Under the pieces are notes generated by a model that had not been told where the DNA came from, did not search any database, and saw nothing but the letters and a program-made list of their open reading frames with translations. 64,000 nt of DNA from an uncultured Clostridia bacterium (GTDB lineage Bacteria > Bacillota > Clostridia > Christensenellales > UBA1242), in contig CALVZE010000002.1 of NCBI GenBank assembly GCA_944372445.1, positions 37,175 to 101,174 on the forward strand, in the 5' to 3' direction. Below, piece by piece: positions 10,518-63,427 of the stretch. The translations under genes were made by a program, and so were the position numbers. Each line of letters starts with the position of its first letter. Positions within the stretch are counted from its first letter, which is position 1.

Positions 10518-10543
10518 GTATTATGTAATATTTTAAATCATAA

Positions 10544-36901: not shown

Positions 36902-39900
36902 ATGAGTAAAAATTTGTCTATCTTCAAATTGATATGTTATAGTTTAGCGGGAATTTTAGTTCTTTTTTGCGCCAATCTATTTAATTTTGCCAACGCGAAA
37001 AGTGAATATGACGGCGGAACTTTTGAAGAGTTCTATGCCGAAGTTATGGAGCTTTATTCAGAGTATGGTGATATAAATGAGGGTGAAAGTAAATCGATAA
37101 GTAAGGATGCTGTTGTTGAAGAAAATGGCGAAATTTATGTTGCGTCATCTCTATTGTCGAATAATGACGAGGTATCTATATTATCGGTCGAAGACGATTT
37201 AGTTTGTGTATCTAATTCTGACTATATTGTTGAAGAAAAAGAAGATAATTATGTTGTAAGCGAACCTTCTTATACCAATCGTATTATTGTATATTATGAA
37301 GGTGACTTGCCGACTTATAAAACTGACGCCTACGCTGAGGGACTAGGGTGGCATATTTATCAATATTCTTCACCTGATGCCACCATAGAGGCGTATGAAT
37401 ATTACAAAAATCTTTCCTATATCGATTTTGTTGATTATGACAGCGTGATAGCCGGCGATACGCAATCTAATAAGGTTACGGAAAATTCTTCCAAGGATTT
37501 TTTGTCTTGGGGTGCTTACTACACAGGTGTTGATGAATATCTTTCGTATTTATCATATATCTATGATGAAAGTGAGTTGGAGAGAGTTTATGTGCCTATA
37601 TTAGACAGCGGTATTAACACTTCTCACGACCTTTTTAAAGGGCGATATTCTAGTGTATATGGCAAAAACTTTACTAAAACAAATGCTAGCGGTTCGGTGG
37701 TTATGGATGATAATTTTGATGATGATGAAGGACATGGTTCTCACACTGCCGGAATTATTGCTGACCAAACGCTTGATAATGTTGTGCTAGTTCCTTGCAA
37801 AGTGCTTAAATCAAACGGCAAAGGCTCTGTGACTATGATTGTAACGGCTATTGAATATATCATAAGTTTGAAAGAAAGTAAAAACTTGAATATTCGCGTG
37901 ATGAACATGAGTTTAGGCGTAGAGAGCGAGGACGGCTCTCCTGTTCACAGTTCTTCTTTAGAAGCGATTATGGAAAAAGCACATGAGGCGGGTATTATGT
38001 CAGTTGTTTCGGCTGGAAATAGCCATAACAACACCTCGTCAAACGCACCTGCTAATATGACAGACGAAGTCATAGTTGTTTCTGCCCTTGACGAAAATTT
38101 ATATGTCGAGAATGGTTTAAGCATTGCAAGCTATTCTAATTATGGTTCTACTGTTGATATAAGCGCGCCAGGCACGCATATTTACAGTTCTTATTATCCA
38201 AATGACTATATGTATCTAGATGGAACATCTATGGCAGCTCCGCATGTTACGGCGGCGATAGCAAACTTGCTTTCTAATCCGTCTATCTCTTCCATGACAA
38301 ACGATGAGATAGAGAATTTACTCTATGAGAATGCTATTGACTTGGGCGATGAAGGCAAAGACATCTATTACGGTTATGGCTGTGTGAATATTGCAGATAT
38401 TGGCGTGGAAACTATTGGAGAAGTAACATTCAGCGTAAAAGAAAGCATGCCTACTGAGCCTATTAGTTTAAAACTAAACTATATTGGTTCTGACACTTAC
38501 AAAATTTACTATACGCTTGATGAAACAAGTCCGTCGCTTGATGATTATGTATATGAAACTCCGATTGAGATAAGTTCGACAACAAAAGTCACTGCGGTTG
38601 CGTTCTTGTTTAATAATGATGGCGATCTTGTTGCTAAGAGCAAAGTTAGTTCCATGACATATTATTTCAACAACGAAGATTTAGAAAGTAGTTATGTGGT
38701 CAGCGGAAATTATTTGTCTGGCACATTGAGTGAATACAACGGCATTTTGACGACATTGAAGGTTCCGTCAAAAATAAAGGGCGTTGCTATCACCAGCATC
38801 AGCGAGGGTGCTTTTGCTAATTCCAAAGTGGAAAATTTAACATTTGCCTCTCAAACCTTATTGATAGACAACCACGCTTTTTATGGACTTAGTTCTTTGA
38901 AAAGTGTGGCTGGTGAGGGTATAGTATCAGTGGGCGACTATGCGTTTGCTAACTGCTTTAATCTTACAAGCATAACATTAAATAACGCCTTCAATATAGG
39001 TGATAACGCGCTTAAAGGATGCACAAAACTGACAGATTTAGATTTGAGTAGTGCTAAGAATATTGGCGAAGGTGCGCTTGATGATTTGTCTTTAAACACT
39101 TTAAAACTTGGAGCAAACTTGCAAAGTTTAGGCACTTCCTATTACCATGCGAAAAGTATCTATGCATATTCTATAACGGGATTTGATGAAATTCTAAAAA
39201 ATTATACGGATGAATATATCTCTCTTGATATGCGATTTTTGAATTCCTATCCGTCAAGGCTCGTCTTTAAAAGTTCGGGTTCTGCCACTTTGACTTTGAC
39301 CTATTTTGCCAACAATATTAAAAATATTGACTATCGCTTTGCAAACACTAACAATTTTGCGAATATTTTTGGGCAAACAATAGAAGCGGAAGTTTCAACT
39401 AAAAGTTTGGGCAATGATATTTATGAAACAACCTTCACTTTTGATAATTTACTAGCGGGCAGTTACAGTTTTCAATTCTATATCTATGACAATTTTAATT
39501 ATGTGCTTTCATCAAATGTTATCAACGTGATTGTGCTTGTTGGAAGTGAAGAGGAATACAGTTTGTCTTTTGAAGAAGGCGAATTTGAAATCTTTATTGA
39601 CAATGTGAAAGTCGAAAATGGTTATACATTTTACAGTGATTTAAGTTATGATATTCAAATTGTGCCAACTGCGAGTTACTATATTTCAGAAGTGCTAGTG
39701 AATAATGAAAGTGTTGCTCTTGACAAAGACAATTCGTTTACAATAGACAATGTTACAGAAGATATACTTTTAACCGCCACTGTTTTAGAAATTGAAGAGT
39801 TTGACATTGCTTTCAATATTGCGGAAGGGGTGAATGTAATAGGAGAAAGTGGTAAGATTGAAGGGAATGCCACGGCAAAACGCAATAATACTTTTACATT

Positions 39901-40381
39901 TTCTGTATATTCCGAAGATGCATATAATATAACCTATGTGGAAATTGACGGAGTAAGGCAAGAAATAAAACGAAGTTACACTCTTGAAGGTGTCTTAGAC
40001 GACCATAAGATAGAAATAGGCGCGCAAATAAAAACATATTTAGTGACAATAAATTACGGAATTGGTGGCGTTGTGTCTGGACAAAATGCCGAAAGAGTAA
40101 ATTATGGCGATGATAAGACTATAAGTGTAGAGGCAGAAGATGGGTATAGCGTTAAGTCTGTGTATGTAAATGGCGAAGAAGTTGAAATTGTCGATGGCGC
40201 TATAACTTTAAATAACATAACAAGCGATATGACTGTTATAATACAATTTGAAAAAGAGGACACAGGTGTCTTTGAGGGCGTAAATTTGGTAATTTTTATC
40301 TTATTTTGTGCCACTCTTGGAATTATGCTTATAAGTATCTGTGTTTTAGTGTTGAAAAAAACTAATAAAAAGAAAATTTAG
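36902..40381 (+). CDS. secreted S8 (subtilisin-like) serine peptidase fused to BspA-type leucine-rich repeats, with a C-terminal TM anchor
   Basis: Signal peptide present. The catalytic triad motifs are LDSGINTSH, HGSHTAGII and GTSMAAPHVTAA. The middle has LRR units (ITSISEGAFANS..., VSVGDYAFANCFNLTSITL). The C-terminus has a hydrophobic helix followed by KKTNKKKI. Confidence 0.85.
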   Translation: MSKNLSIFKLICYSLAGILVLFCANLFNFANAKSEYDGGTFEEFYAEVMELYSEYGDINEGESKSISKDAVVEENGEIYVASSLLSNNDEVSILSVEDDLVCVSNSDYIVEEKEDNYVVSEPSYTNRIIVYYEGDLPTYKTDAYAEGLGWHIYQYSSPDATIEAYEYYKNLSYIDFVDYDSVIAGDTQSNKVTENSSKDFLSWGAYYTGVDEYLSYLSYIYDESELERVYVPILDSGINTSHDLFKGRYSSVYGKNFTKTNASGSVVMDDNFDDDEGHGSHTAGIIADQTLDNVVLVPCKVLKSNGKGSVTMIVTAIEYIISLKESKNLNIRVMNMSLGVESEDGSPVHSSSLEAIMEKAHEAGIMSVVSAGNSHNNTSSNAPANMTDEVIVVSALDENLYVENGLSIASYSNYGSTVDISAPGTHIYSSYYPNDYMYLDGTSMAAPHVTAAIANLLSNPSISSMTNDEIENLLYENAIDLGDEGKDIYYGYGCVNIADIGVETIGEVTFSVKESMPTEPISLKLNYIGSDTYKIYYTLDETSPSLDDYVYETPIEISSTTKVTAVAFLFNNDGDLVAKSKVSSMTYYFNNEDLESSYVVSGNYLSGTLSEYNGILTTLKVPSKIKGVAITSISEGAFANSKVENLTFASQTLLIDNHAFYGLSSLKSVAGEGIVSVGDYAFANCFNLTSITLNNAFNIGDNALKGCTKLTDLDLSSAKNIGEGALDDLSLNTLKLGANLQSLGTSYYHAKSIYAYSITGFDEILKNYTDEYISLDMRFLNSYPSRLVFKSSGSATLTLTYFANNIKNIDYRFANTNNFANIFGQTIEAEVSTKSLGNDIYETTFTFDNLLAGSYSFQFYIYDNFNYVLSSNVINVIVLVGSEEEYSLSFEEGEFEIFIDNVKVENGYTFYSDLSYDIQIVPTASYYISEVLVNNESVALDKDNSFTIDNVTEDILLTATVLEIEEFDIAFNIAEGVNVIGESGKIEGNATAKRNNTFTFSVYSEDAYNITYVEIDGVRQEIKRSYTLEGVLDDHKIEIGAQIKTYLVTINYGIGGVVSGQNAERVNYGDDKTISVEAEDGYSVKSVYVNGEEVEIVDGAITLNNITSDMTVIIQFEKEDTGVFEGVNLVIFILFCATLGIMLISICVLVLKKTNKKKI

Positions 40382-40438: not shown

Positions 40439-41014
40439 ATGAGCACAGGTCTTATTGTTTTGCTTGCTGTTCTTGGTATCATAGTTCTTATCGGTATCAT
40501 CTTAGCCATTTGGATTTGGGTTCAATATAATGCATTCATTCGTTTAAGAAATAATGTGGACGAGTCATACTCAACTATGGATGTCTATATGAAAAAAAGA
40601 TATGACTTAATACCAAATCTTGTTGAAACGGTAAAGGGGTATGCTAAACATGAAGAAGCAACGCTAGAAGGTGTTATGCAGGCTCGCTATTCTTGTATGA
40701 ATGCATCGACAACTGCTGAGCGCGCTAAAAGCGAAAATATGCTTTCAGACACACTTAAATCATTGTTTGCAGTGACTGAGAACTATCCACAACTTCAAGC
40801 TAATCAAAACTTTTTGGACTTACAACAGACTCTTAAAACTTTGGAAGAAGAGATTTCAGTTTCTAGAAAGTATTATAATGGTTGTGTAAAAACTTATAAT
40901 ATTAAGCGTGAATCTTTTCCGACAAATATGATTGCTAAGTGGTTCAAGTTTGAAAAGAAAGAACTTTTTGAAATTGCAGAAGCTGAGAAAGTTGCTCCAA
41001 AAGTTCAATTCTAA
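40439..41014 (+). CDS. lemA: LemA family protein
   Basis: 191 aa with an N-terminal TM helix. YNAFIRLRNNVDESYSTMDVYMKKRYDLIPNLVETVKGYAKHE is the LemA core. Confidence 0.85.
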   Translation: MSTGLIVLLAVLGIIVLIGIILAIWIWVQYNAFIRLRNNVDESYSTMDVYMKKRYDLIPNLVETVKGYAKHEEATLEGVMQARYSCMNASTTAERAKSENMLSDTLKSLFAVTENYPQLQANQNFLDLQQTLKTLEEEISVSRKYYNGCVKTYNIKRESFPTNMIAKWFKFEKKELFEIAEAEKVAPKVQF

Positions 41015-41017
41015 GAA

Positions 41018-41048
41018 AAATCTCTATCAAAAAAGATAGAGATTTTTT
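41018..41048 (+). terminator. intrinsic terminator after lemA
   Basis: 11-bp stem aaatctctatc/gatagagattt with a 6-nt A loop, followed by a T-run. Confidence 0.75.
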
Positions 41049-41135
41049 ATGTTGTTTTTTCTAAATTTTTAGCAAATTTTTGATATTTTTTAAGTTTTAG
41101 ATTGTATTTTTCAATATTTTTCGTTTTTAAATTTT

Positions 41136-42548
41136 CTATTGAGCTTTCACGCGCTCTTCATTATCCTCAATTTCTTCAACTTTTAAAACTGAAACGCTTT
41201 TTATTTTTGTTTCATTAGTTGTTTCATTTTTACCGTCAGCCGAGTTTGAATCGTCAATTGTGTTTTCTATTTCCTTTTTACCGTTTTCGATATTTTCTTT
41301 AGTGTCATCCATTTTTTTATTTATATCATTCATGAGGTTTATTACTTCTTTTTTATCTTTCTCTATTTCTTTATTTTGGCAACCTTCACACTTTTCATCT
41401 TCATGGTTGTTTTTAGGAGTTTGAGGCATATCTATTTCGTTTGGATTTATTGTGTTATTAAGTTTGTCCTTTTTATCATATCTAAGGGAATTTTCTACTC
41501 CTTCTTTTAGTCTTTCTTCATTTATTAGTTTTTCTTCATCTTCATCCATTTCTATATTTACAGGTTCTAATAATCTATTATAATTGTTGGCGTTATAGAG
41601 ATTGTATGGATTAATTCCTTGATTAAACCTGTTCATGCCATAGTAGCCATTTCCATAAAAATAATTACCGTTAGCTAAACCATATCTCCCGTAGCCATAA
41701 GGGCGATAGGTGTCAATATTCCTTTTAAACGGCGCGTAGGTGTCAGTGTTTCTTATTGTGGTGTCAACGGGTTGTTCTTCTAGGCTATCTTCCGCTCTAT
41801 AAGTGTCTATATTCCTTTTTAATTTCCACTTCTTTTTATCGCTCTGGGTGTTTTCGTTAGTTTTGTCAGTTTCCACCTCAGTTTTTTCATTGTTTTCTAA
41901 ACTCGAATTTAAGTCGTTTTCAAGTTCGTTTTTCATGTTGTAATAATCATAATCCTCTATTCCCAATATTTCTTCCATGTCTTGTAATGTGTTTAAAATG
42001 TTGATATAGTAGGAGCAACGCGTGTTAGAGTTGCAGGTTATTTTGTTGAGTTTGGCGTTTACGCGTTCAATATTTCGTGAGGCGCTCTTTTTCATAGTGT
42101 TGTAGTTGCGATAGGTGGCGTTAAACTCGTTACTTGACCTTGCAACATTGTCGTTATAGTTCGAGAGATTGGCGGTTAAATCTTTTAACGCATTCAACTC
42201 TCCTTTTTTCAGCTTCAAATCTTCTTTTTGAAGATGTTTTTTTATTATGGCTGTCTTTCTTTGAATTTCATTTTTATAGAAGTTCTCAGTTTCAAGAGTG
42301 GCTTGTGCGCGCATAATATTGTTTTTGAATTGCTCGCATCTTTGTTCGTTGTCTATGCTGTCTAACTTTTCATTGTCAATTTCAACATCACTTGCGTTAA
42401 CACTTCTTACTGTGGCAATAGAGTTGTTTGTTTTGTCTAATTGGCTAGACAAATTAGTTTTTGTCATTGTGCTTGTGGAACTAGAACATCCCGCCATGGT
42501 AACACAAAGTAGTAAAGAAAGTGTCCCTAAAATTATTTTATTTTTCAT
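41136..42548 (-). CDS. lipoprotein with RN(I/T)DTY repeats and a Gly/Tyr/Asn-rich segment
   Basis: The start at 42548 follows a GGAGG SD. The lipobox reads LLLCVTMAGCSS. RNIDTYR occurs twice and RNTDTYAP once. A YGYGRYGLANGNYFYGNGYYGMN segment is present. Confidence 0.65.
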   Translation of the reverse strand: MKNKIILGTLSLLLCVTMAGCSSSTSTMTKTNLSSQLDKTNNSIATVRSVNASDVEIDNEKLDSIDNEQRCEQFKNNIMRAQATLETENFYKNEIQRKTAIIKKHLQKEDLKLKKGELNALKDLTANLSNYNDNVARSSNEFNATYRNYNTMKKSASRNIERVNAKLNKITCNSNTRCSYYINILNTLQDMEEILGIEDYDYYNMKNELENDLNSSLENNEKTEVETDKTNENTQSDKKKWKLKRNIDTYRAEDSLEEQPVDTTIRNTDTYAPFKRNIDTYRPYGYGRYGLANGNYFYGNGYYGMNRFNQGINPYNLYNANNYNRLLEPVNIEMDEDEEKLINEERLKEGVENSLRYDKKDKLNNTINPNEIDMPQTPKNNHEDEKCEGCQNKEIEKDKKEVINLMNDINKKMDDTKENIENGKKEIENTIDDSNSADGKNETTNETKIKSVSVLKVEEIEDNEERVKAQ

Positions 42549-42648
42549 AATCCCTCCAAATTTAACCTTAGTTTGTGTGAATATTAGGAGTTTATACTTT
42601 TTTTGTTTAAGTTTTTTATGGTTGGACAAAATTTATTATGAGGTTAAT

Positions 42649-43107
42649 ATGGACATAAAAGAACGAAATAAGGCTTATAACAAGTATGTAAATGCAAAGA
42701 TACCTAAGACTAGACCTTGGCCGACCCTTTTTAATTCCTTTTGGGTGGGTGGGCTTATATGCTTAATAGGTCAGGGTATAAATGATTTAATCTTGTATCT
42801 CTTTCCGAATGTTTCAGAAAGTTCTGCTTGGGCTTATACGCTTATTGTTTTAATTTTCCTTGCGTCACTTCTCACAGGCATAGGCGTTTATGATAAAATC
42901 GGCAGATTTGCAGGCGGAGGAACGATTGTGCCTATTACAGGATTTTCTAATTCGATTACAAGTCCTTCTGTGGAATTTAAAAGCGAGGGCATTATCTACG
43001 GAATTTGCGTCAAGATGTTCACAATTGCCGGACCAGTTATAGTTTTCGGCGTGCTATCTAGTGCGCTTGTAGGGCTTATTTACTACATTATTTATCTGTT
43101 TGTGTAA
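42649..43107 (+). CDS. spoVAC: stage V sporulation protein AC
   Basis: 152 aa from the ATG at 42649 (GAGG SD). PKTRPWPTLFNSFWVGGLICLIGQG and ...GGGTIVPITGFSNS are typical of SpoVAC. The track ORF from 42298 is a spurious N-terminal extension. Confidence 0.85.
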   Translation: MDIKERNKAYNKYVNAKIPKTRPWPTLFNSFWVGGLICLIGQGINDLILYLFPNVSESSAWAYTLIVLIFLASLLTGIGVYDKIGRFAGGGTIVPITGFSNSITSPSVEFKSEGIIYGICVKMFTIAGPVIVFGVLSSALVGLIYYIIYLFV

Positions 43108-43168
43108 TTCTTCTAAAATATTAAGTCATTTAAGGTTTGGTTTACAAGATTAACAAAATGAGGTGAGT

Positions 43169-43804
43169 ATGAAAAATGATACCATAAGATTTAAGCGTCA
43201 GCCAAAGATAATAGGCTCGTATTCCATTGTGGGACCGAAAGAAGGGCAAGGGAATTTTAAAGACTATTTTGATTACATTATGAAAAACGACCTGTTTGGC
43301 GAAAAAACTTTTGAAAAGGCAGAGCGCAAAATGATTGAAACGGCAATTACTGGTGCAATTCAGAAATCTAAACTAGGCATGAAAGATATAAATTTGCTTG
43401 TTGCTGGTGATCTATTAAATCAGATTATTTCTTCGTCATACGCGGCACGAGCTTTTAATTTTCCTTATTTAGGTGTGTATGGCGCTTGTTCCACAATGGC
43501 AGAAAGTATCGCAGTGGCATCTACGCTTGTCGATGGAGGATATTTTGAAAATGTTGTTTGTTGCACCGCTTCGCATTTTTCAACGGCAGAAAGGCAATAT
43601 CGCTTCCCGCTCGAACTTGGCAATCAGCGTCCTCCTGTCTCGCAATGGACGGTGACGGGCGCCGGCAGTTGCGTGCTTTCGCAAAAGGGCAAGGGTCCGC
43701 GCGTGACAATGGCAACATTCGGCAAGGTTATTGATTGGGGTGTGGTGGACGTCAATAATATGGGCGCCGCAATGGCACCTAAAATGGCTATAATAGGACC
43801 ATAA
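43169..43804 (+). pseudogene. spoVAD: stage V sporulation protein AD, truncated after about 204 conserved residues (full length is about 335 aa)
   Basis: It is conserved through LLNQIISSSYAAR, GACSTMAES and NMGAAMAP. The text then changes to KMAIIGP-stop at 43781-43804. No spoVAE follows. Confidence 0.7.
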
Positions 43805-43947
43805 CGGAGTGATACCGCCGTGAATATCTAATACAAAAAATCTATAATAGAAGGAGGTTTTATTGGTATCAAAAAAATTCAAAAAGTGGTTGAAATATGC
43901 CACTTTTTTGAAATTGATATGTTATAATGAAAGAGAGGTAAATTGTT

Positions 43948-44340
43948 ATGGCAAACATTAAAGTATTTGAAGATAAGAAAATTAGAACAGAGTGGGATGC
44001 TGAAAAAGAAGATTGGTGGTTTTCAGTCCACGACGTGGTGCAAGTGCTAAGCGATTGTAAAGATGTTAGAGACTATATCAAAAAAATGAGAAAGAGAGAT
44101 GAACAGTTGAATTTGAACTGGGGGACAATTTGTCCCCTTCACAATAAATCAACTTGCGGAACTTATTACAAAGACAATCTTGCAACAAGAAAAACCAGAA
44201 ACATTTGCAAAAAGTAAAGATGTTGCTAGGCGTGGTGGTAAAACAGACAAAATGTTAAAGACGAATTTGAAAAGATAATCTGCACAAGGTGGCGTCAAGT
44301 GTGAATGTAGCAAAAAAAATACTTGATACCAATCCAAAAG
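43948..44340 (+). pseudogene. Bro-N / DinD-like phage-associated gene, internally deleted and frameshifted
   Basis: The N-terminal IKVFEDKKIRTEWDAEKEDWWFSVHDVVQVL resembles the Bro-N/DinD family. The ORF stops at 44217, and the +1 frame continues QQEKPETFAKSKDVARRGGK..., which resembles the family C-terminus (from memory). Confidence 0.5.
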
Positions 44341-44423
44341 ATGATTGACAAAAGAACGGATAATATGATAAAAGAAAGGGTTAAATTTTGTATTATTGTT
44401 ATGTTCATTAACTTTATTGTTTA

Positions 44424-44452
44424 TTGACTTTTATTAAATAAATTGTTATAAT
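44424..44452 (+). promoter_or_regulatory. sigma-A-type promoter of the BspA-like gene
   Basis: TTGACT (44424-44429), a 17-nt spacer, then TATAAT (44447-44452). A GGGAGAAA SD precedes the ATG at 44471. Confidence 0.55.
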
Positions 44453-44470
44453 AAAATACAGGGAGAAAAT

Positions 44471-47400
44471 ATGGAAATAAAGAAATTTTTGATATATCCG
44501 TTAATTATTATTCTTATGGTGGTTGCTCCTATATTTTTGTTGACAGCTTGCGGTTCAACAAAATATATAGTAAAATTTGATTCGTGTGGAGGAAGTTATG
44601 TCGAAAACATCACAGTTGAAGAAGGAGAATTGATCGATGAACCAACCCCACCAACAAAAGATGGGTATGAATTTGGTGGATGGTATATAGATCAAGATTT
44701 TAATTATGAATTTAGATTTGCCGTTGATACCATAAATAAAGATACAACTCTCTATGCAAAATGGGATGAGCCAATAACTTATTATACGATAACATTCGAC
44801 ACTTGTGGCGGAACTGAAGTTGAAAGCCAAGTTATTGAAGCCGGAGCATTTTTGCAATACCTTAAAGCAACTCATAAAGAAGGTTATCATTTTGAAGGTT
44901 GGTATTATGATCAAATCTATACTAGACCTTTTTCAATATCAACTCCAATAAACTCTAGTTTTATCCTTTATGCTAAGTGGGAACTAGAAAGGGAAAATTA
45001 CTTAGTAAAATTTGATTCGTGTGGAGGAAGTTATGTCGAAAACATCACAGTTGAAGAAGGAGAATTGGTCGATGAACCAACTTCGCCAACAAAAGAAGGA
45101 TATGTTTTCATAGGTTGGTATCTTGATCAATGGTATAATAATATATTTAAATTTGATACCTACAAAGTTACAAATGATATTACACTTTATGCTAAATGGG
45201 AAAAACAAATTTCGTATTTCACAATCACTTTTGATTCTTGCGGTGGTAGTGTTGTTAATAACCAAATAATAGAAGAAGGTGGAAAAGTTTCTATTCCAAA
45301 TAATCCAATAAGAGAAGGATTTGAATTTGATGGTTGGTATACAAGCCAAGATTACAACGAACAGTTTAATTTTGAAACAATAATAAATACAAATATAACT
45401 TTATATGCAAAATGGTTGGATAAAAGTTTAACATATACTGTAACTTTCAACTCTATGGGAGGTAGCGAAGTTGCAAACCAAACTGTTTCAAATGGATCTT
45501 TATTACAAAGGCCACAAGATCCTGTGAAGGAAGATTTGTCATTTGATGGCTGGTTCAAAGATGAGAATTTTAGTGAAAGATTTGATTTTGAAACGGAAAA
45601 AATTACAAATAATATTACGCTTTATGCTAAATGGCTCGCACCCGATGAAATCTTTTCATTTAGCTTAACAAGTGATTATAGTTTTTATATTTTGACAAAA
45701 TATACAGGAACAGCAACAAGTGTTGTAATTCCTAGACTTTATAATGGACTACGCGTTAATGCAATAGGTGCTAATGCTTTTAAAGACAATGAATATATTG
45801 AATATATTGAAATTCCAAATACAGTAGAGATTATAAGGCAGTCAGCATTTGCTAATTGTACAAATCTTTCGTTAATCATAATTCCTGGAAATGTTAAAAA
45901 TGTGGAGCAAGATGCATTTAATGGATGCGTAAATTTAAAAAATGTTATTGTGCAATCAGGTGTAGAAAATCTTGGAGATCGAGTTTTTCAAGATTGTATA
46001 TCTTTGAATAATGTAAATTTAGAAAATGGTATTTTAAGCATCGGAGCAATGGCTTTTGATAATTGTTTGTCATTACAAACAATCACTTTGCCTAATACTG
46101 TTACATCCGTTGGACCAATGGCATTCAGACATGCAGAGGCAATGAAATCGGCTGTTTTATCAACAGGAATGACTGATATTTCCAATGCAATGTTTCAGTA
46201 TTGTATTAGCCTTAAAAGTATTGATATCTTAACAAATATCAAAAATATAGGAAACTCTGCATTTAGTTATTGCTACAAATTAGAAGATGTAAAATTCCTT
46301 GGCAAAATTTCAACAATGGGCAATTCTGCATTTTATGATTGCCGAAATATTGAAAATATTTATTGGGCATCAGAAAGCTCAGGAGATTATGGTGAAAATA
46401 ACTATATTTTTTACAATGGAGGAGTTGATTCAACAGGAATAGAATTGACAATATCTGCAAGTGCAAACATTCCTGTGGGACTTTTTAAGCCATATCAAAA
46501 TTCAAACATTCCTAAAATAACTAAAATTATCTTTGAAAATGGCACAGTTTCTATTACATCAAATGAATTTAAAGATATGCCTTATTTGCAAAATATTGTG
46601 GTTCCAGACACTGTAACAACAATAACGTCAGGAACATTTGATAATACACCATGGTGGAATGTCCAACCAGACGGACTTGTATATATTAATAATGTACTTT
46701 ATGCATATAAGGGGTATGCCCCAGTAGATGGAAATATTGTCATGAGAGACGATATAGTGTCAATCGCAAATGCTGTATTATCTGGTGTGAGTGGTATAAG
46801 AAGTTTGACATTACCATTTGTTGGGCAAACAGCGAATCCTGAAGGAGAGAACGGAAAGTTTGCATATCTCTTTGGTACAACAGAAAATATACCAGTTTCA
46901 TTAACAATTATTATAACAAATGTTACTCGAATCGCAGATGAAGCATTTGCAAATTGTAAAAATTTAACATCAATTAAACTACCAGATAGTGTGACAAGCA
47001 TTGGGGATTCAGCTTTTAGTGGTTGCACTGGTTTGACTTCAATTATAATTCCAGATAGTGTCACAAGTATTGGAAGATTAGCTTTTAGCGGATGTTCGTC
47101 TCTTGAAAGTATCACATTGCCATTTGTTGGAAGTTCAAGAGATGCTACAGGAGATGATGGAAAATTCATTTATGTTTTTGGAATGGCGTCAGCTTCATTA
47201 TCTACTGTTATTATCACAAATGCCACTCAACTTGTAGATGAAGCATTTGCAAATTGTAAAAATTTAACATCAGTAACAATTTCGAACAGTGTTACAAGTA
47301 TTGGGGATTCAGCTTTTAGCGGATGTTCGTCTCTTGAAAGTATAACATTACCATTTGTTGGAAGTTCAAGAGATGCTACAGGTGAGAATGGATTGTTTGG

Positions 47401-49192
47401 TTATATATTTGGTACGTCTAGTTACTCAGGTGGAACTTCGACAAAACAATATTACGATTCTTCTTCATATAGAACATACTATATTCCAACACATTTAAAA
47501 GTAGTAGCCATTACTGATACAATGCAAGTTTCATATGGTGCATTTTATAATTGTTATAATTTGACTTCAATTGTTATTCCAGATAGTATGACATGTATTG
47601 GCGCGCGTGCATTCGGAGAATGTTCTGGTTTGAATGAAATAAAAGTTAATATAAATAATCAAATTTACACAAGTAAAGATGAAAACGGAAATGAAATTAA
47701 TGGTATAATTGAAAAAGGAACTAAGACATTAATAGTTGGTTGCAAAAATACTATAATTCCAGACATTGTGACAAATATTGGGAATTATGCATTTTATGGT
47801 TGCACTAGTTTGACTTCTATTGAAATTCCGGACAATGTGACAAGTATTGGAAATTATGCATTTTATAATTGCACTGGTTTGACGTCTATCACCATCCCGA
47901 ATAGTGTAGTAAGTATTGGAAGTTCTGCATTTGGTAGTTGTTCATCTCTTGAAAATATTACTTTACCTTTTATTGGAGAATCAAAAACAGCTACCAATGC
48001 TAGTGCATTATTTGGATATATTTTTGATAGATATAGTTACATAGGTGGAACTGAAACGAAACAATATTATGGTTCTTCTTCATATGCGACATACTATATA
48101 CCAACAAGTTTAAAAACGGTTGTCATTACTGACGCAACACAATTTTCTTATGGGGCATTTTGTAATTGTTCAAATTTGACATCTATTACCATTCCAGACA
48201 GTGTAACCAGTATTGGAGAAAGAGTCTTTTATAATTGTTCAAATTTGACATCTATTACCATTCCAGACAGTGTAACCAGCATTGAAGAAAGCGTATTTTA
48301 TAATTGCACGGGTCTAATAACAGTAAATATGGCTAATGAGGTAGAAAGTATTGGGACTTCTGCATTCTACAACTGCACTAACTTAACTGAAATAATAATA
48401 CCGGATAGTGTAATAAAAATAGGGACTTCTGCATTCTACAACTGTATTAACTTAACTGAAATAATAATACCAGACTCTGTAATAAGAATTTGCAGTGATG
48501 CATTTAGAGATTGTTCGAATTTAACAACATTAACTATAGGCAAAGGAGTAAAATATCTTGAAAATTTTGCATTTTACAATACTACGGCATTAACGACTAT
48601 CAATTTTAATGCAATAAATTGTTCTTTAGTGGGATCTCTTTATTCAACGAGTTATACATTCTATAATTCTGGTAATTTAGGTTCAGGTATAACTATTTAT
48701 TTTGGAGATAATGTAGAAAGTATTCCAGTAGATTTGTTTTATGATTCTGGTTACGGTCCATCTACACCAAATATTACCAAAGTAATAATAAATAGTAGTA
48801 AAGCTAGCATTGGAGAAAGAGCATTTTTTAATTGCGTAAAATTAACAACATTAATTATCAATGAAGGAGTAACTAGTGTCGGTGAGAGAGCATTTTATAA
48901 TTGTTCTAATTTGACTTCAATTGTTATTCCAGATAGTATTACAGAAATTGGTGATGCTGCATTTGAAGATTGTACTAAGTTGCTTTCAGTTGTTATTAAT
49001 CAGTATATTTTTGAAAATATATCATCTACTTCAAGTTCTTGTGGAAATATTCTTAATTATGTTGATAGTGTTTATGTGCCAGCGAAAATTATTGATGATC
49101 TAAAATTAACAAATGAATACTTAGATGATCAAACTAAATTTACTAGAAGTGAAAATGCTATAGATAGCTATTATATTTATACTAAAAAATAG
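44471..49192 (+). CDS. giant surface lipoprotein: Listeria-Bacteroides (Flg_new-type) repeats followed by BspA-type leucine-rich repeats
   Basis: 1573 aa with the lipobox LLTACGS. About six units follow of the form F(D/N)SxGGS(x)V...(F/L)xGW(Y/F)...TLYAKW. Dozens of 23-aa LRRs then follow (IPDSVTSIGDSAFSGCSSLTSIT). Confidence 0.85.
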   Translation: MEIKKFLIYPLIIILMVVAPIFLLTACGSTKYIVKFDSCGGSYVENITVEEGELIDEPTPPTKDGYEFGGWYIDQDFNYEFRFAVDTINKDTTLYAKWDEPITYYTITFDTCGGTEVESQVIEAGAFLQYLKATHKEGYHFEGWYYDQIYTRPFSISTPINSSFILYAKWELERENYLVKFDSCGGSYVENITVEEGELVDEPTSPTKEGYVFIGWYLDQWYNNIFKFDTYKVTNDITLYAKWEKQISYFTITFDSCGGSVVNNQIIEEGGKVSIPNNPIREGFEFDGWYTSQDYNEQFNFETIINTNITLYAKWLDKSLTYTVTFNSMGGSEVANQTVSNGSLLQRPQDPVKEDLSFDGWFKDENFSERFDFETEKITNNITLYAKWLAPDEIFSFSLTSDYSFYILTKYTGTATSVVIPRLYNGLRVNAIGANAFKDNEYIEYIEIPNTVEIIRQSAFANCTNLSLIIIPGNVKNVEQDAFNGCVNLKNVIVQSGVENLGDRVFQDCISLNNVNLENGILSIGAMAFDNCLSLQTITLPNTVTSVGPMAFRHAEAMKSAVLSTGMTDISNAMFQYCISLKSIDILTNIKNIGNSAFSYCYKLEDVKFLGKISTMGNSAFYDCRNIENIYWASESSGDYGENNYIFYNGGVDSTGIELTISASANIPVGLFKPYQNSNIPKITKIIFENGTVSITSNEFKDMPYLQNIVVPDTVTTITSGTFDNTPWWNVQPDGLVYINNVLYAYKGYAPVDGNIVMRDDIVSIANAVLSGVSGIRSLTLPFVGQTANPEGENGKFAYLFGTTENIPVSLTIIITNVTRIADEAFANCKNLTSIKLPDSVTSIGDSAFSGCTGLTSIIIPDSVTSIGRLAFSGCSSLESITLPFVGSSRDATGDDGKFIYVFGMASASLSTVIITNATQLVDEAFANCKNLTSVTISNSVTSIGDSAFSGCSSLESITLPFVGSSRDATGENGLFGYIFGTSSYSGGTSTKQYYDSSSYRTYYIPTHLKVVAITDTMQVSYGAFYNCYNLTSIVIPDSMTCIGARAFGECSGLNEIKVNINNQIYTSKDENGNEINGIIEKGTKTLIVGCKNTIIPDIVTNIGNYAFYGCTSLTSIEIPDNVTSIGNYAFYNCTGLTSITIPNSVVSIGSSAFGSCSSLENITLPFIGESKTATNASALFGYIFDRYSYIGGTETKQYYGSSSYATYYIPTSLKTVVITDATQFSYGAFCNCSNLTSITIPDSVTSIGERVFYNCSNLTSITIPDSVTSIEESVFYNCTGLITVNMANEVESIGTSAFYNCTNLTEIIIPDSVIKIGTSAFYNCINLTEIIIPDSVIRICSDAFRDCSNLTTLTIGKGVKYLENFAFYNTTALTTINFNAINCSLVGSLYSTSYTFYNSGNLGSGITIYFGDNVESIPVDLFYDSGYGPSTPNITKVIINSSKASIGERAFFNCVKLTTLIINEGVTSVGERAFYNCSNLTSIVIPDSITEIGDAAFEDCTKLLSVVINQYIFENISSTSSSCGNILNYVDSVYVPAKIIDDLKLTNEYLDDQTKFTRSENAIDSYYIYTKK
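44568..45081 (+). repeat. intragenic near-identical DNA repeat pair, offset 435 bp
   Basis: 44568-44646 and 45003-45081 are 79 nt each with a single mismatch. Confidence 0.85.
46936..47382 (+). repeat. intragenic near-identical DNA repeats inside the LRR region
   Basis: 46936-46972 equals 47236-47272 (37 nt). 47081-47151 is nearly identical to 47312-47382 (about 71 nt, 2 mismatches). Confidence 0.8.
48163..48490 (+). repeat. 69-bp (23-codon) tandem LRR units with long exact DNA identity
   Basis: 48163-48210 equals 48232-48279 (48 nt, exact). The unit at 48353 repeats at 48422 with few mismatches. Confidence 0.85.
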
Positions 49193-49202
49193 GAGAAGTA
49201 TA

Positions 49203-49484
49203 ATGGAAAAGATATTTAAAATAGAATCAAATGAACAATTATTAAGAGAAGCCATAGAAATTTTAAGTGAAGAAATTCCGAGTGATTTACTTGATAAGCA
49301 TAATCTTATGTTGAAAATTCGAGAGATTCAAAATAAAATATTTAATTATAAAGAAGAAACTTTTAAAAATGTTGATGAATATCTTAAACATAATAGTAGC
49401 TTGAAAGTTCAAATAATTTTAAACCAAGATTTAGAGAATGTTATTGAAAAATTATTTGTAAAAAGCCAATCTATATTCAAATAA
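49203..49484 (+). CDS. hypothetical small protein co-transcribed with the BspA-like gene
   Basis: 93 aa with an AGGAGAAG SD. The start is 11 nt after the upstream stop, and a terminator follows. Confidence 0.5.
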   Translation: MEKIFKIESNEQLLREAIEILSEEIPSDLLDKHNLMLKIREIQNKIFNYKEETFKNVDEYLKHNSSLKVQIILNQDLENVIEKLFVKSQSIFK

Positions 49485-49506
49485 AAACTTAAATGGTAAT
49501 TTATTG

Positions 49507-49537
49507 GGCATGTATTAAACACAGTACATGCCTTTTT
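49507..49537 (+). terminator. intrinsic terminator
   Basis: 8-bp stem ggcatgta/tacatgcc (49507-49514 and 49525-49532), then TTTTT. Confidence 0.7.
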
Positions 49538-49658
49538 GTATCAAAAATCTTTAAACTAAATATAAACTGTTATATAAATAAAATAAGTAACTAGAGATGT
49601 CAAATCAATGGGGCTTATCAATCATTAAATTTTAGATATTATATTTATAACGATTAAT

Positions 49659-49687
49659 TTGCAAATTTACTAAAAATTATTTATAAT
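49659..49687 (+). promoter_or_regulatory. sigma-A-type promoter of the 1041-aa gene
   Basis: TTGCAA (49659-49664), a 17-nt spacer, then TATAAT (49682-49687). Confidence 0.55.
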
Positions 49688-49706
49688 ATAAAAAAGGTAG
49701 CATAAT

Positions 49707-52700
49707 ATGGGACAATTTTTGGAAGATCAAAAGAAAATAGAGAATTCATTTAAGTGCACAAATGATTATATTATTGATACTAAAAAATTATTGGAAATTA
49801 TTATGCAAGCTTTTTATGATAGAAATTCAAGCAAGCTTCCTATGATAGATATAGAAAATTTTATTATCAAAACTTTAAAATTGCAGCGTTTTGATAATTA
49901 TAAAGGACTACGTAAACTTTTAGGTAATGATAGATTAACAAGTTTAGAAGATATAAAAAGGAAGTATGGAGATGTTGTAGAAATTAAAGATATAAAGCCG
50001 CAAAACGAAAAATATATTAGGCCATACAAAGATAAAAATAATGATATTGAATATTATTATATGACAAAAAGTAAAAGGATACCTCTGAAAAATGTTGTTG
50101 ATGATGTATATAACTATTTCACTAGGAAAAATGCAAAAGTAATATCATTAAGTGATATTTATGATTATTTGAGAAGGAAATATAACGTTGGATCTTTTAA
50201 TAGAAAAAATTTAACAGATCTTTTAGGATCTAATGTTAATATTCCATTAAGCAAAGTTGAAGCATTATATATAAATTACAATAGGATCAATCAAGAAGGT
50301 TTAGATTTTGGTATTCTTACATATCTATTTGTTAATAACAAAAAATTGATACAAAAAGTTTTAAATAGTTTAGGTAAAGATTTCTTAATATTAATATTAA
50401 AATATGGGTTAAGGTCAATAATAAATATTACAAACTCGTTAAATTTATATTTTGATAATGAAAAAGATGTTTTGGAATTGGCTGACAATAAAAAGGATAA
50501 GGTTTTAGATAAACAAAATTCTGAAATGCTAATAAGATTTTTAAATCTGTTTAAAGATGAAGAATGGCAAAATATTCTAGCAAATGATAATCAAATCAAT
50601 GAGTATATAGAAATGTTTGTTGAAGATGAAAAACTTATTCTCGAAAAAGAAAATTTTAGAAAGACAATTAAATCATATTATAATCTAATAAACGAAAATA
50701 ATTTAGATGCAAACACAAAATATCTATTTCCATTTAAAATTGCTTCAATATTTCAGGAAGCTAAAATATACAAAGTAAAAGATTTAGTCCATATCAACAA
50801 GGACATTAGTATAAAGTTATTTGAATACAAGAAACAATTTATAGAAATTGTAAAACGATTACAAATTGATTTGCAAAAATATTTAAATGAGCAATTTAGT
50901 TATATATTGCAAATGGTTAATAAAAATTATCAACCTGCAACATTGTGGCGAAGTTATGTTTCAATTCTTGATGATCGTTCGAAAGGTAAAACGCTTCAAG
51001 AGGCTGGCGATAATGCTGGTGTGACAAGAGAAAGAGTTAGGCAACTTGAACGTAAGTATGCAACTATGTTCAATGGCTTTTATAATGCACCTAATGGCAA
51101 TCTCAATAATCTTATCAGAGCATTTGTCTCTAATTCTTTATTTTTAACTGACACCGATATAATTAGAATCTTTCCGTTTAATCCACGATTATTTAAATAT
51201 TTTCTTTTAAATACTGAAATAGAAGGGCTTATGTATATTGAAGAAATTGGTAAGTTTTACTTTGTTGATGATTATGATTGGTATAAGGAATTATTAATTT
51301 ATATAGATGAACTTCCATCACAATTCAATATTAACGAGCTTGATTCTATAATATCTCAATGTTTGAATAATTTGTTAAAGAATGATATAAAACTTGATTA
51401 TGATGATTGTAGTAAAATACTTTTACAGAATTATAAATTAATTGGATCTATATATTCAAAAACTATATTAAGTTTGGCTGATAAATTTGCAAATTTAATA
51501 AAGAAGTATTATCCAAATCCTGTTAATATATATGATAGTAAATTTTTATCGGAATTTAGATCTTTGTATTATAAAACTTATGGTGATGATAAAATTAAGA
51601 CAGATCACGCCATTACTTCTGTTATAGCAAGAATAGGTATGCTTGTGGGTAGGGGCCTATATGTTTTGAATGATAAAATGTTTATGAGTGAAGAACTTGC
51701 CTATAAAATCTATAACTATATTATAGATAGTGGTAGACAAATTTTTTTAACTAATAACCTTTATGAAATTTTTAAAGAAGAATTGCAAGCGGAAGGAATT
51801 GATAATAAGTATTTTATGCAGGGGGCTTTAAAACAAAGATTAGGAGATAAGTTATTCTTCCGTAGAGATTATGTAAGCACTACCAATGAAGTGACATCAG
51901 TTTATGGAGAAATGGTTAAGTTTGTAAAAGACGCGAAAAGAATAGTAAGTTATGATGAAATTCAAGAAGAGTTTAAAGGGACTCCGTGGAATGTTTTAAT
52001 CTTCGCACTAAGTCAAGACGACATATTAAATTATAGATCAAAATATGTGCATAAGGATACATTACAAATAGATGAAAATGATATTAACTACCTAAAAAAT
52101 GTGATAGATAATCTTGTTAATGATGGAAGAATACATCATATAAATGATCTATATACTTTCATAAAATTAACAAATAAAAAACTTTTAGATAAATTATTTG
52201 TAGATAGTCACTTTGCATTATTTAGTGTTATACAAAGTCTATTTGAAAGTGATTATGAAATGAAGAGACCATTTATAGCAAAGAAAGGAACAGTAATTGA
52301 AAATCAAATAGATCGTATTAACGAATTTGTTAGAAGCAATGAAATTGTTTCGATTGATTCTATTTTGGATTTTGTTTCTGACAATAGGCTGCATTTATAT
52401 AGTATAAGTGAATATGTTGATTCTCTTGAAGATTATGTTTTTAAAGATGACAAAAGTATAATTGAGTTAGAGAAAAGTGGTATCAATAAATATAATGTTG
52501 AAGTTGTAGAGAAAATGATATTAAAAGCAATGAAAGATGAAGAATTTTTATTTGCCGACAAACTGCCATTTTATAATCTATTTCCAAAAGGAGTAGATTG
52601 GACTCCGTGGCTTGTGTATAGTGCATTAAACAAGTTTGGTGTTTATTTAAAGGCAATACCATCTGATACGATGTTTAAACGCAAAGATGTTATTTTTGCT

Positions 52701-52832
52701 AGACCACTTATCATAAAAAGAGAAGTAAAGGCGACAAACATCAATGAGTTTGTGCAGTATTTAAGAGATAAAAAACAAATGAATGATACAGAATTTTATA
52801 AGTATTTAAGAACGAAAGGGCTAACGGAATAG
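49707..52832 (+). CDS. large (1041 aa) protein with a central sigma-70 region-4-like helix-turn-helix; otherwise unknown
   Basis: GKTLQEAGDNAGVTRERVRQLERKYATMF (nt 50985-51056) matches the region 4.2 pattern (xTLxEIGxxxGVTRERVRQIExKA). I found no NTPase or nuclease motif. The sequence is very K/N/I-rich. Confidence 0.55.
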   Translation: MGQFLEDQKKIENSFKCTNDYIIDTKKLLEIIMQAFYDRNSSKLPMIDIENFIIKTLKLQRFDNYKGLRKLLGNDRLTSLEDIKRKYGDVVEIKDIKPQNEKYIRPYKDKNNDIEYYYMTKSKRIPLKNVVDDVYNYFTRKNAKVISLSDIYDYLRRKYNVGSFNRKNLTDLLGSNVNIPLSKVEALYINYNRINQEGLDFGILTYLFVNNKKLIQKVLNSLGKDFLILILKYGLRSIINITNSLNLYFDNEKDVLELADNKKDKVLDKQNSEMLIRFLNLFKDEEWQNILANDNQINEYIEMFVEDEKLILEKENFRKTIKSYYNLINENNLDANTKYLFPFKIASIFQEAKIYKVKDLVHINKDISIKLFEYKKQFIEIVKRLQIDLQKYLNEQFSYILQMVNKNYQPATLWRSYVSILDDRSKGKTLQEAGDNAGVTRERVRQLERKYATMFNGFYNAPNGNLNNLIRAFVSNSLFLTDTDIIRIFPFNPRLFKYFLLNTEIEGLMYIEEIGKFYFVDDYDWYKELLIYIDELPSQFNINELDSIISQCLNNLLKNDIKLDYDDCSKILLQNYKLIGSIYSKTILSLADKFANLIKKYYPNPVNIYDSKFLSEFRSLYYKTYGDDKIKTDHAITSVIARIGMLVGRGLYVLNDKMFMSEELAYKIYNYIIDSGRQIFLTNNLYEIFKEELQAEGIDNKYFMQGALKQRLGDKLFFRRDYVSTTNEVTSVYGEMVKFVKDAKRIVSYDEIQEEFKGTPWNVLIFALSQDDILNYRSKYVHKDTLQIDENDINYLKNVIDNLVNDGRIHHINDLYTFIKLTNKKLLDKLFVDSHFALFSVIQSLFESDYEMKRPFIAKKGTVIENQIDRINEFVRSNEIVSIDSILDFVSDNRLHLYSISEYVDSLEDYVFKDDKSIIELEKSGINKYNVEVVEKMILKAMKDEEFLFADKLPFYNLFPKGVDWTPWLVYSALNKFGVYLKAIPSDTMFKRKDVIFARPLIIKREVKATNINEFVQYLRDKKQMNDTEFYKYLRTKGLTE

Positions 52833-52894
52833 TTGGCTCTTTTTAGTAAATATGAAAAATATACTAAATATTTTATAAATATTTGAAAAATCTA

Positions 52895-52923
52895 TTGACT
52901 TTTAGCGATAATATTGCTAAAAT
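52895..52923 (+). promoter_or_regulatory. near-consensus sigma-A promoter of the ten-gene operon
   Basis: TTGACT (52895-52900), a 17-nt spacer, then TAAAAT (52918-52923). An AAGGAG SD precedes the ATG at 52952. Confidence 0.6.
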
Positions 52924-52951
52924 ATAACTATCAAAGTCGAAGGAGAATAAT

Positions 52952-53173
52952 ATGTCTAAACAAAAACGCGAAAATTTTGTTAGACTAGCAGAAACTAGAA
53001 CTAATAAAATTTTGGATATGATAAGGTTGTTAGGTAATTTATCCAACACATCGAACTATTCTTATACAAAGGAAGATGTTAACAAAATTTTTTCAACATT
53101 AGAGAAAGAGTTGGAAAATACTAAAAAGAAGTTTGATACAATTGGATCAGATGATAAATTTACATTGTTATAG
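52952..53173 (+). CDS. small helical protein, first gene of the operon (possible regulator)
   Basis: 73 aa with an AAGGAG SD. The next gene starts 8 nt after its stop. Confidence 0.55.
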   Translation: MSKQKRENFVRLAETRTNKILDMIRLLGNLSNTSNYSYTKEDVNKIFSTLEKELENTKKKFDTIGSDDKFTLL

Positions 53174-53181
53174 GAGGAAAA

Positions 53182-56702: not shown

Positions 56703-56703
56703 G

Positions 56704-56838
56704 ATGGCTATGGGAAGAAGAAAAAATATACCGTTATGGTTTGTGCCAATACATTTTGGTTATAGTTTTATTAAAGATATATTATCGTGGAAGGTCCCGG
56801 GGAATGGGAAACGACGCAGAAGAAGAAGGAAATACTGA
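56704..56838 (+). CDS. 44-aa micro-ORF with an Arg6 C-terminal tail
   Basis: The peptide is MAMGRRKNIPLWFVPIHFGYSFIKDILSWKVPGNGKRRRRRRKY. It starts 2 nt after the upstream stop. Its TGA overlaps the SNF2 ATG as TGATG. Confidence 0.4.
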   Translation: MAMGRRKNIPLWFVPIHFGYSFIKDILSWKVPGNGKRRRRRRKY

Positions 56839-59441: not shown

Positions 59442-59443
59442 AG

Positions 59444-60580: not shown

Positions 60581-60599
60581 AAATCAAGGGAGTAATAAA

Positions 60600-63413: not shown

Positions 63414-63427
63414 GGATAAATACAAAA

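Follow-up and report, generated by a model that had tools for sequence, protein, structure and literature searches.

Why does spoVAD break off after codon 204 in an uncultured Clostridia bacterium, and what is the DNA that takes over at this point? The question is raised by the 64,000-nucleotide stretch of contig CALVZE010000002.1 analyzed here (the window). The original prediction saw in it a sharp junction between spoVAD and a foreign island, a view that holds, and wavered between plain inactivation and an intervening element of the skin type. We propose that the window probably contains the left attachment site (attL) of an integrative and conjugative element (ICE) of at least ~50 kb, which would have inserted site-specifically and reversibly in spoVAD and would be under ordinary ICE control. 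The finding of an intact empty site and of precise reciprocal junctions indicates that the insertion is precise and reversible, and that plain decay of a pseudogene is the wrong reading.

The truncated gene and its intact counterpart

The open reading frame (ORF) at 43169-43804 on the forward strand matches the Pfam family SpoVAD (PF07451) over profile positions 3-204 of 329 (E 8e-90). It also matches NCBIfam TIGR02845 over positions 2-203 of 327, with 278 bits for a cut-off of 411.8 bits, a low score that is expected because the protein is truncated. The ORF reads ...NNMGAAMAP and then KMAIIGP and a stop, as the original prediction had described. It falls short of the ~330 residues of a full-length profile match, and is a genuine 5' gene fragment and an incomplete member of the family. 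The closest full-length homologue (P0001, 333 residues, 97% identical over the shared part) is encoded on a 7.4-kb contig (L007) in the order spoVAC-spoVAD-spoVAEB-yunB-CBS. This contig aligns with positions 40876-43781 of the window at 94.9% identity, and the alignment stops exactly at 43781, after ...ATGGCACCTA. None of the L007 sequence past the junction point is present in the window, and six-frame tblastn of the whole window found no SpoVAD C terminus, SpoVAEB, YunB or serine recombinase. The earlier observation that spoVAE does not follow is therefore borne out. The truncated SpoVAD is not on record by exact-sequence lookup with either of its possible starts. Directly upstream, spoVAC is full length (TIGR02838, 165.3 bits for a cut-off of 164). 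The sporulation gene spoIVB, at 5197-6399, is also full length (profile positions 8-396 of 402), with 289.7 bits, slightly below the 305-bit cut-off. Both genes had been called intact in the original prediction.

The same junction recurs in other genomes and in independent assemblies of several sequencing runs, which are gut metagenomes in the form of assembled contigs, a format from which rare forms drop out. The junction between spoVAD and the island is real and not an assembly artefact. Truncation at this codon is also common in databases: 12 among the 120 best N-terminal hits stop at Pro204, with 75-94% identity over the aligned columns, and their tails are related and derived from the element (KMAIIGP, AIDIIGP or AIAIIGLCGMILPRISNTKI). 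One such short form, P0021, is encoded on a 168-kb contig (CAYNTF010000003.1, assembly GCA_964400145.1, here L008) of a metagenome-assembled genome (MAG). Its SpoVAD is 81% identical to that of the window. The 60 bases past the junction are nearly identical in the two, and an intact Bro-N gene comes next in L008. A conserved element end beside a diverged host spoVAD is the signature of a mobile element. We rejected the idea of a natural short SpoVAD isoform, since the tails of the short forms come from the element and recombinases adjoin the partner fragments. The original prediction would have been overturned if short SpoVAD were normal in the lineage; short forms are indeed many, but they are insertions of one element family.

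Both ends of the element and the attachment site

The missing part of the gene was found at the far end of related elements. In CAYNTF010000003.1, the 3' part of spoVAD (P0143, 131 residues) lies 28.2 kb downstream of the 5' part. It is directly preceded by two tandem large serine recombinases (566 and 527 residues, with Resolvase, Recombinase, Zn-ribbon and DUF4368 domains), and it is followed by spoVAEB, yunB and the CBS gene, which is the gene order of the empty site. Similarly, a 550-residue recombinase stands directly before the spoVAD 3' fragment in L012. Homologues of this recombinase, 98% and 94% identical, are carried by L013 and L092; that of L092 is followed by a spoVAD 3' fragment, and the L013 contig ends 148 bp past its recombinase gene. 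Lookup of another 3' fragment (P0144) led to 24 contigs carrying it, which were read. The order in L177-L180 is primase, C5 methyltransferase, DUF6870, recombinase 1, recombinase 2, spoVAD 3' part, spoVAEB, yunB, CBS and ileS. The recombinase thus lies next to the attachment site in the relatives L013, L011, L012 and L177-L180. For the species of the window itself, the evidence comes from X1, X2 and X3, metagenomes of the chicken gut in which the junction of the window also occurs. Some of their contigs match the 3' end of the L013 recombinase gene at ~90% identity as far as ...TCACC. Past this point the contigs read TAGTTGTGCTGAAACTATGCTTGCAC, the sequence that follows CACC in the intact allele, i.e., the missing spoVAD. 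In this species, 547 nt of the recombinase 3' end are thereby joined to the right attachment site (attR). The suggestions of the original prediction to search beyond the window for the 3' third of spoVAD with spoVAEB, and for a recombinase at the far end, were thus fruitful in CAYNTF010000003.1 and its relatives, and X1-X3 supplied the 3' sequence as well.

The two tandem recombinases are 43% identical to each other, and the solved structures closest to the one proximal to attR are the TnpX catalytic domain and a recombinase of a Clostridioides difficile conjugative transposon. The ~100 bp upstream of the first recombinase (L013:8194-8296, and also L011, L014 and L097) are nearly invariant among elements that are otherwise 74-80% identical. 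In this region, a long inverted repeat, GAGATGATGTG...CATATCATCTC, encloses an extended -10 motif, TGTTATAAT; the repeat may act as an operator or form a leader hairpin. A search upstream of the recombinase genes for promoters of the sporulation type gave this strongly conserved region and nothing that could be assigned to sigma F, G, E or K.

Comparison of the junctions defines the attachment site closely (a slash marks the junction). The empty site (attB) of L007 reads ...GCCATGGCACCTA/GTTGTGCTGAAACT and the attL of the window ...GCAATGGCACCTA/AAATGGCTATAATAGGACCATAACGG. The attR reads ...TTGACAAT.TCACC/TAGTTGTGCTG in the window's species and ...TTATGGTCCATACTTGACAATCTCACC/GTCTGCAATGG in the host of L012. 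The core common to the three sites in the window's species is CACCTA, and CACC alone is common across hosts. Its copies at both junctions are the short direct repeat that the original prediction had proposed to look for near 43775-43785. The chromosomal sides of attL and attR sum exactly to the empty site of L007 and of the runs X1, X2 and X4. Recombination at this site is therefore conservative and precise, and attL and attR can be resolved into an intact attB. We infer that the crossover dinucleotide is CC at 43778-43779, within the Pro204 codon CCT (43778-43780). The right junction falls at this codon in 20 distinct right junctions, while that of L124 is not resolved by alignment. The right ends mostly read ...CC followed by a variable base, with ...TCC in two of them (L108 and L124).

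Joining the right end of the element to its left end reconstructs the site of the circular form (attP). An outer inverted repeat, GGACCATAA, at 43796-43804 pairs with TTATGGTCC at the right end, and the reconstructed attP has these perfect 9-bp inverted repeats around 34 bp, with the CC of codon Pro204 at the midpoint. The distant relative L105 has ATGGTGT paired with ACACCAT, a compensatory change, and the arms co-vary among members of the family. The reconstructed attP has the architecture of a large-serine-recombinase site with a 2-bp crossover. Translation of the truncated SpoVAD ends at the TAA contained in the attL copy of GGACCATAA, and tails of family members end in ...IIGP-stop because this TAA sits within the repeat. 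On the other side, NNMGAAMAP, which does not vary in the alignment, is encoded by the upstream half-site of attB; hence, one recombinase family can use hosts whose SpoVAD is 42-87% identical to the reference. Some left ends are joined differently. In X23 and X24, the left end (positions 43769-44000 of the window) is preceded by non-spoVAD DNA, ...TTTAAATTGTAGAGGTGT, yet the 13 bases GCAATGGCACCTA are kept, and another contig of X3 joins unrelated DNA, ...TTATTGCTGG, to base 43783 of the window. These joins may be secondary insertion sites or rearranged copies, and neither fits the predicted attP.

Recurrent insertion, coexisting alleles and gene content

Relatives of the recombinase, drawn from genome and metagenome collections, recur at this site. 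All nine that are at least 50% identical and have enough flanking sequence abut a spoVAD 3' fragment starting at residue 201-202. Another 15, 36-43% identical, adjoin a spoVAD fragment broken at residue 202-204, and three of these have the recombinase at the opposite end, beside the 5' half. The recombinase next to the 5' half is transcribed towards it in L016, L020 and L111. Overall, related recombinases adjoin spoVAD fragments broken at residues 202-204 in at least 25 loci. The labels of the hosts include Clostridia, Lachnospiraceae, Christensenellales, Oscillospiraceae, Borkfalkiaceae and Flavonifractor MAGs. Of the 120 database proteins that best match the C-terminal third, 56 start right at the junction, and the short SpoVAD forms in databases are other insertions of the same element family. 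The divergence of the element and that of its hosts are decoupled, and this in either direction: some hosts with recombinases 99.3-99.6% identical have SpoVAD 3' parts 69-76% identical and, conversely, recombinases just 58-76% identical occur beside SpoVAD 3' parts that are 95-97% identical. This led us to reject long vertical inheritance, under which the split halves could have been tested for selection. Horizontal transfer is apparent both from this decoupling and from the left ends of the window and L008, which are ~96% identical. These comparisons show that the spoVAD site has been hit repeatedly and independently and that the element moves between genera.

Two loci depart from the common arrangement. 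In L118, from a Borkfalkiaceae MAG, the 3' half of spoVAD lies on the opposite strand to the 5' half and ~14 kb away, which suggests an inversion. In L105 (positions 4234-12472; Christensenella MAG MGBC141815), an element of 8.25 kb with a single recombinase and glmM-, glmS- and capD-like genes lies between the spoVAD halves, and it could not be lost if these genes are the host's sole copies.

Occupied and empty sites were found together in single samples. The depth of the occupied site in X1 is much the same at both ends (7.05 at attL and 6.2 at attR), that of the empty site is 4, and that of the shared upstream contigs is 11.5-12.7. The corresponding depths of occupied and empty sites are ~6 and ~7 in X2, and ~2.4 and 12 in X4. 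In X1, the carrier and empty forms have in common a 6.1-kb upstream contig without any variant. Carriers thus live beside non-carriers on what seems to be one strain background, as would fit recent gain or loss of the element in situ. The comparison with island-free relatives that the original prediction had called for thus yields an intact empty site both in closely related genomes and in the same samples.

The features of the window are listed in Table 1. The decayed Bro-N gene, the surface protein and the defense genes that had been noted downstream of the junction are all there. In tblastn with the intact Bro-N of L008, residues 1-64 match 43948-44139 and residues 204-251 match 44132-44275 in another frame. 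The surface protein carries Listeria-Bacteroides repeats and leucine-rich repeats (LRRs) of the BspA type. The G+C content falls to 22-28% over positions 49000-53000, a region that encodes a 93-residue ORF and the 1041-residue protein; searches for defense systems and protein families gave no match to the latter beyond its single sigma-70 region-4 motif.

Table 1. Features at and beyond the spoVAD junction, in window coordinates
Feature	Position	Strand	Basis
spoVAC, intact, first gene of the spoVA operon, chromosomal side	42649-43107	+	TIGR02838; PF03862; synteny with empty-site contig L007
spoVAD 5' part, codons 1-204, chromosomal	43169-43781	+	PF07451; 94.9% DNA identity to intact L007 allele up to 43781, unrelated beyond
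Core CACCTA common to attL, attR and attB	43776-43781	+	Comparison of L007, window, L012 and X1-X3 contigs
Element-derived ORF tail KMAIIGP and stop; putative recombinase-binding arm of attL	43782-43804	+	~96% identical to L008 left end
Left 20.2 kb of the predicted integrated conjugative element, running past the window end	43782-64000	+	No homology to empty site
Bro-N remnant, residues 65-203 deleted, frameshift	43948-44275	+	tblastn with intact 278-residue L008 Bro-N; weak PF02498
1573-residue surface protein, lipoprotein-like signal, cargo	44471-49192	+	PF13306 (LRR_5), 10 stretches, E 1e-193; PF09479, 5 stretches
1041-residue protein, one sigma-70 region-4 helix-turn-helix motif	49707-52832	+	PF04545, 24.3 bits; G+C 22-28%
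Candidate defense system PDC-M33	53182-56702	+	PADLOC
PDC-M33A	53182-55086	+	PADLOC, E 8e-181
PDC-M33B	55070-55948	+	PADLOC, E 5e-91
PDC-M33C, DUF6339	55911-56702	+	PADLOC, E 5e-64; PF19866
SNF2-family helicase, DrmD/BrxH-like	56787-59441	+	PF00176; PF00271; PADLOC DrmD, E 2e-100
Type III-like N6/N4 DNA methyltransferase	60573-62588	+	PF01555; PADLOC MTase_III, E 1e-182
Start of 979-residue type III restriction enzyme (ResIII and RE_endonuc), cut at window end	63428-64000	+	L002:7695-10634

The element can be followed beyond the window. Contig L002 (sample ERZ28614529) is 100% identical to positions 55734-64000, and a second scaffold of this sample carries the exact SpoIVB of the window. L002 continues for 9.4 kb with the type III restriction enzyme, a DUF559 helicase and a LexA-like S24 repressor. 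In every variant, the LexA-like gene is followed by a helix-turn-helix protein, a sigma factor of the extracytoplasmic function (ECF) type, a MobL relaxase, a VirD4/TraG-type coupling protein and a 1488-residue protein. The possibility that the LexA-like gene is the host lexA, and hence the right border of the island, was rejected because the relaxase and coupling protein follow it in every variant. The relaxase has 396 residues and the VirD4/TraG-type protein 720 in L172-L174, of which L173 is 97% identical to L002. These two genes were found in these variants, rather than in the window's own genome. Together, L002 and L173 extend the element by ~20 kb, short of the right arm, which in relatives holds DUF3846, an LRR protein, DUF1281_C, a Toprim primase, the C5 methyltransferase, DUF6870 and the two recombinases. 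In IMG/VR, the recombinase finds merely distant relatives (34-36% identity) and the exact attP junction pattern has no match; with nothing closely related there, we dropped the reading as a prophage. Judged by the genes and lengths of the pieces read, which sum to at least ~50 kb, the element is an integrative conjugative element.

The middle of the element is mosaic, with defense cassettes that differ between copies otherwise 95-100% identical. When positions 52628-64000 are compared with L001-L006 and L172-L174, the conserved SNF2 helicase, the methyltransferase ends, a 274-residue gene and the type III restriction enzyme flank swapped cassettes. These include a 378-residue gene, a 421-residue gene, AbiTii, a Bro-N gene, a heavy-metal ATPase with an ArsR-type regulator and a DUF559 helicase block. 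BspA-type repeats (LRR_5) occur in the left-arm cargo (44471-49192), in the conserved right arm (L013:2468-3364) and also on the chromosomal side, where an S8 peptidase-LRR protein is encoded immediately before the spoVA operon (36902-40381). Further away on the chromosomal side, 500 bp downstream of spoIVB, a tyrosine recombinase gene of the XerC/XerD/XerS type (6905-7945) keeps its position in other assemblies and is probably a host gene unrelated to the island.

A probable reversible insertion and its relation to known systems

Our proposal is that a large serine recombinase of the TnpX/TndX type inserts the element by conservative exchange at the CC of the invariant Pro204 codon (GCA CCT), with the half-site motif NNMGAAMAP offering a nearly universal landing site in spore-forming Clostridia. 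The right part of the window's element is predicted to hold conjugation genes, primase, C5 methyltransferase, DUF6870 and two serine recombinases, followed by ...TCACC/TAGTTGTGCTGAAACT..., spoVAEB and yunB. Insertion would cut SpoVAD after residue 204 and move the 3' third of the gene and spoVAEB tens of kb from the operon promoter, which should leave the dipicolinic acid (DPA) channel operon non-functional for as long as the element stays in place. The recombinase that inserted the element would also excise it and so rebuild spoVAD exactly, as the empty sites on an otherwise identical background indirectly suggest. Excision could be occasional or triggered by DNA damage through the LexA-like S24 repressor, and might be followed by conjugative transfer. 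Ordinary ICE control would be the most likely regime, and control by the sporulation programme a less likely one. Probably, spoVAD serves as a target for its invariant site and as a gene silent and dispensable during vegetative growth in the gut.

Several points weigh against this proposal. We infer both the loss of function of the split operon and the SOS control of excision. The window's element has been pieced together, with a gap between the relaxase and coupling-protein region (L172-L174) and the right arm; the latter is known from relatives and from the contig with 547 nt ~90% identical to L013. No genes for a type IV secretion channel were seen in the pieces read, which do not cover the stretch from the coupling protein to the right arm. 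The circular attP junction was not found in the contigs of X1-X4, at either end of the element, nor in IMG/VR, which is weak evidence since contigs drop rare forms. Finally, split alleles are very frequent and their fragments have no frameshift or stop in any locus, which would also fit selection for a working gene that can be reconstituted.

An alternative is that the element is developmental. The forespore, or the pre-divisional sporangium, would then excise it and so regain an spoVAD fit for DPA uptake, and the circle would later be kept in the spore and reintegrated at germination, or else lost from a fraction of the spores. We consider this unlikely. Taken furthest, it would make the ICE family the first intervening element of a forespore-expressed gene, with excision coupled to sporulation, spoVAD rebuilt in the germ line and a primase-bearing circle persisting in the spore. 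A dedicated sporulation gene is indeed split at one exact codon across many lineages by an element with its own site-specific recombination unit, as in intervening elements, and both gene halves are intact in every locus examined. The coexistence of empty and occupied sites on an identical background in single gut samples points the same way, as do the right-arm primase, which could support upkeep of an excised circle, and the highly conserved region that the recombinase genes have upstream. However, the element is an ICE that spreads horizontally rather than being fixed by vertical descent, its repressor is LexA-like, no sporulation-type promoter was recognized upstream of the recombinases, and no attP circle was seen in the X1-X4 contigs or IMG/VR. 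The spoVA operon depends on sigma-G and acts in the forespore membrane. Excision would thus have to occur in the germ line, and the caveat of the original prediction stands: excision in the mother cell could not rescue spoVA. Nearly all intervening elements described in the literature interrupt genes of the mother cell, and their excision leaves the germ line intact (PMC6957869, PMC4191935). They favor such genes because the mother cell is terminal and its excision events spare the germ line; spoVAD, as a forespore gene, departs from the targets of elements of the skin and SPbeta type. The comparison with skin made in the original prediction therefore holds in part: the insertion is precise, excisable and splits a sporulation gene, but the element is an ICE (MobL relaxase and VirD4/TraG-type protein) and not prophage-like, and no evidence ties its excision to sporulation.

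A permanent insertion, in a lineage losing heat-resistant sporulation where the split spoVAD is a young pseudogene never rebuilt, appears very unlikely to us. The Bro-N gene at the left end has already decayed, and some relatives, such as L105 with its glmS- and glmM-like genes, are small and look fixed. The cost of losing spoVA may also be low, given that spoVA mutants of Clostridium perfringens and C. difficile still form viable, DPA-poor spores. Against such decay, neither half of spoVAD has lesions, and the sporulation genes spoVAC (intact) and spoIVB (complete in length, with a score slightly below the cut-off of its family) are kept. Relatives keep both recombinase genes at full length and both attachment sites intact, the window's own species has attL and an attR junction with 547 nt of the recombinase 3' end, and an intact empty site occurs on the same background in the same samples. 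These last junctions also make an assembly chimera of spoVAD and an unrelated island barely credible. In favor of a chimera, the window comes from a metagenome-assembled contig and the make-up of the island varies from sample to sample, but the identical junction was found in independently assembled runs, where depths add up. Moreover, another genome and further runs have this left-end sequence after the same codon, and the reciprocal junction exists.

The preferred reading, a reversible ICE insertion, has implications for spore biology in the gut. Should it do no more than disable the operon, the formation of fully heat-resistant spores would be blocked, reversibly and transferably, in a sizeable share of gut Clostridia, a matter of interest for host-to-host transmission and for the sporulation loss reported in gut Firmicutes. 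If excision were instead tied to sporulation, this would be a new logic for developmental DNA rearrangement, with a heritable switch in gut Clostridia that couples the quality of spores to carriage of the ICE. In practical terms, the recombinase and its ~50-bp attB could provide a ready-made broad-host integration system for Clostridia that are hard to engineer.

Mobile elements that split sporulation genes are already known, as a classic case of programmed DNA rearrangement; the present case is a widespread and horizontally mobile conjugative family whose serine recombinases target one invariant codon of a forespore gene required by the DPA channel of the spore. Full-text literature searches found no report of an insertion in spoVAD. 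As in our case, mobile or formerly mobile elements split sporulation-specific genes in skin (SpoIVCA, in sigK), SPbeta (SprA/SprB, in spsM), phi3T (in kamA), vfbin (in spoVFB), vrin (in spoVR) and gin (in gerE). Skin and SPbeta share with the spoVAD element a large serine recombinase. In all of these systems, precise excision rebuilds the frame. The attachment sites of skin-type elements also have a short common core with flanking inverted repeats (PMC4191935, PMC5499854, PMC5595907, PMC6957869). They differ in that their targets are mother-cell genes and their excision occurs in the terminal mother cell, whereas the spoVAD element targets a forespore gene. Most skin-type elements derive from prophages, whether whole or as remnants, and one is a tiny element unrelated to phages, while the spoVAD element, conjugative by its genes, crosses genera. 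Developmental timing and a directionality factor are documented only for the former.

Tn5397 (TndX) and Tn4451 (TnpX) resemble the spoVAD element in having large serine recombinases, in being conjugative or mobilizable and in residing in Clostridia. Both integration and excision are the work of TndX and TnpX themselves, which are not known to need a separate directionality factor. The spoVAD element differs from both transposons by its two tandem recombinases, its much larger size and its defense cargo. The role of TndX in both integration and excision has been stated, and Tn5397 prefers few sites or just a GA dinucleotide (PMC4430133), whereas the spoVAD family is strictly aimed at a single codon of one conserved gene. 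The two recombinases also recall another type of island. SCCmec has the tandem large serine recombinases CcrA and CcrB at one end of a cargo-rich island. SCCmec also uses a single conserved site in the 3' part of a conserved gene and has a primase/helicase-type replication gene nearby. Unlike the spoVAD element, it leaves its target (orfX/rlmH) active, is not known to carry conjugation genes and belongs to another host group. Finally, spoVA genes themselves can be mobile. PMC6907783 mentions them solely as apparent cargo of gut islands and cites the Tn1546-like spoVA2mob of Bacillus subtilis. Like the spoVAD element, spoVA2mob is a mobile element that alters spore properties dependent on spoVA, but spoVA2mob adds an extra spoVA operon and raises heat resistance, while the spoVAD element carries no spoVA genes and interrupts the resident operon.

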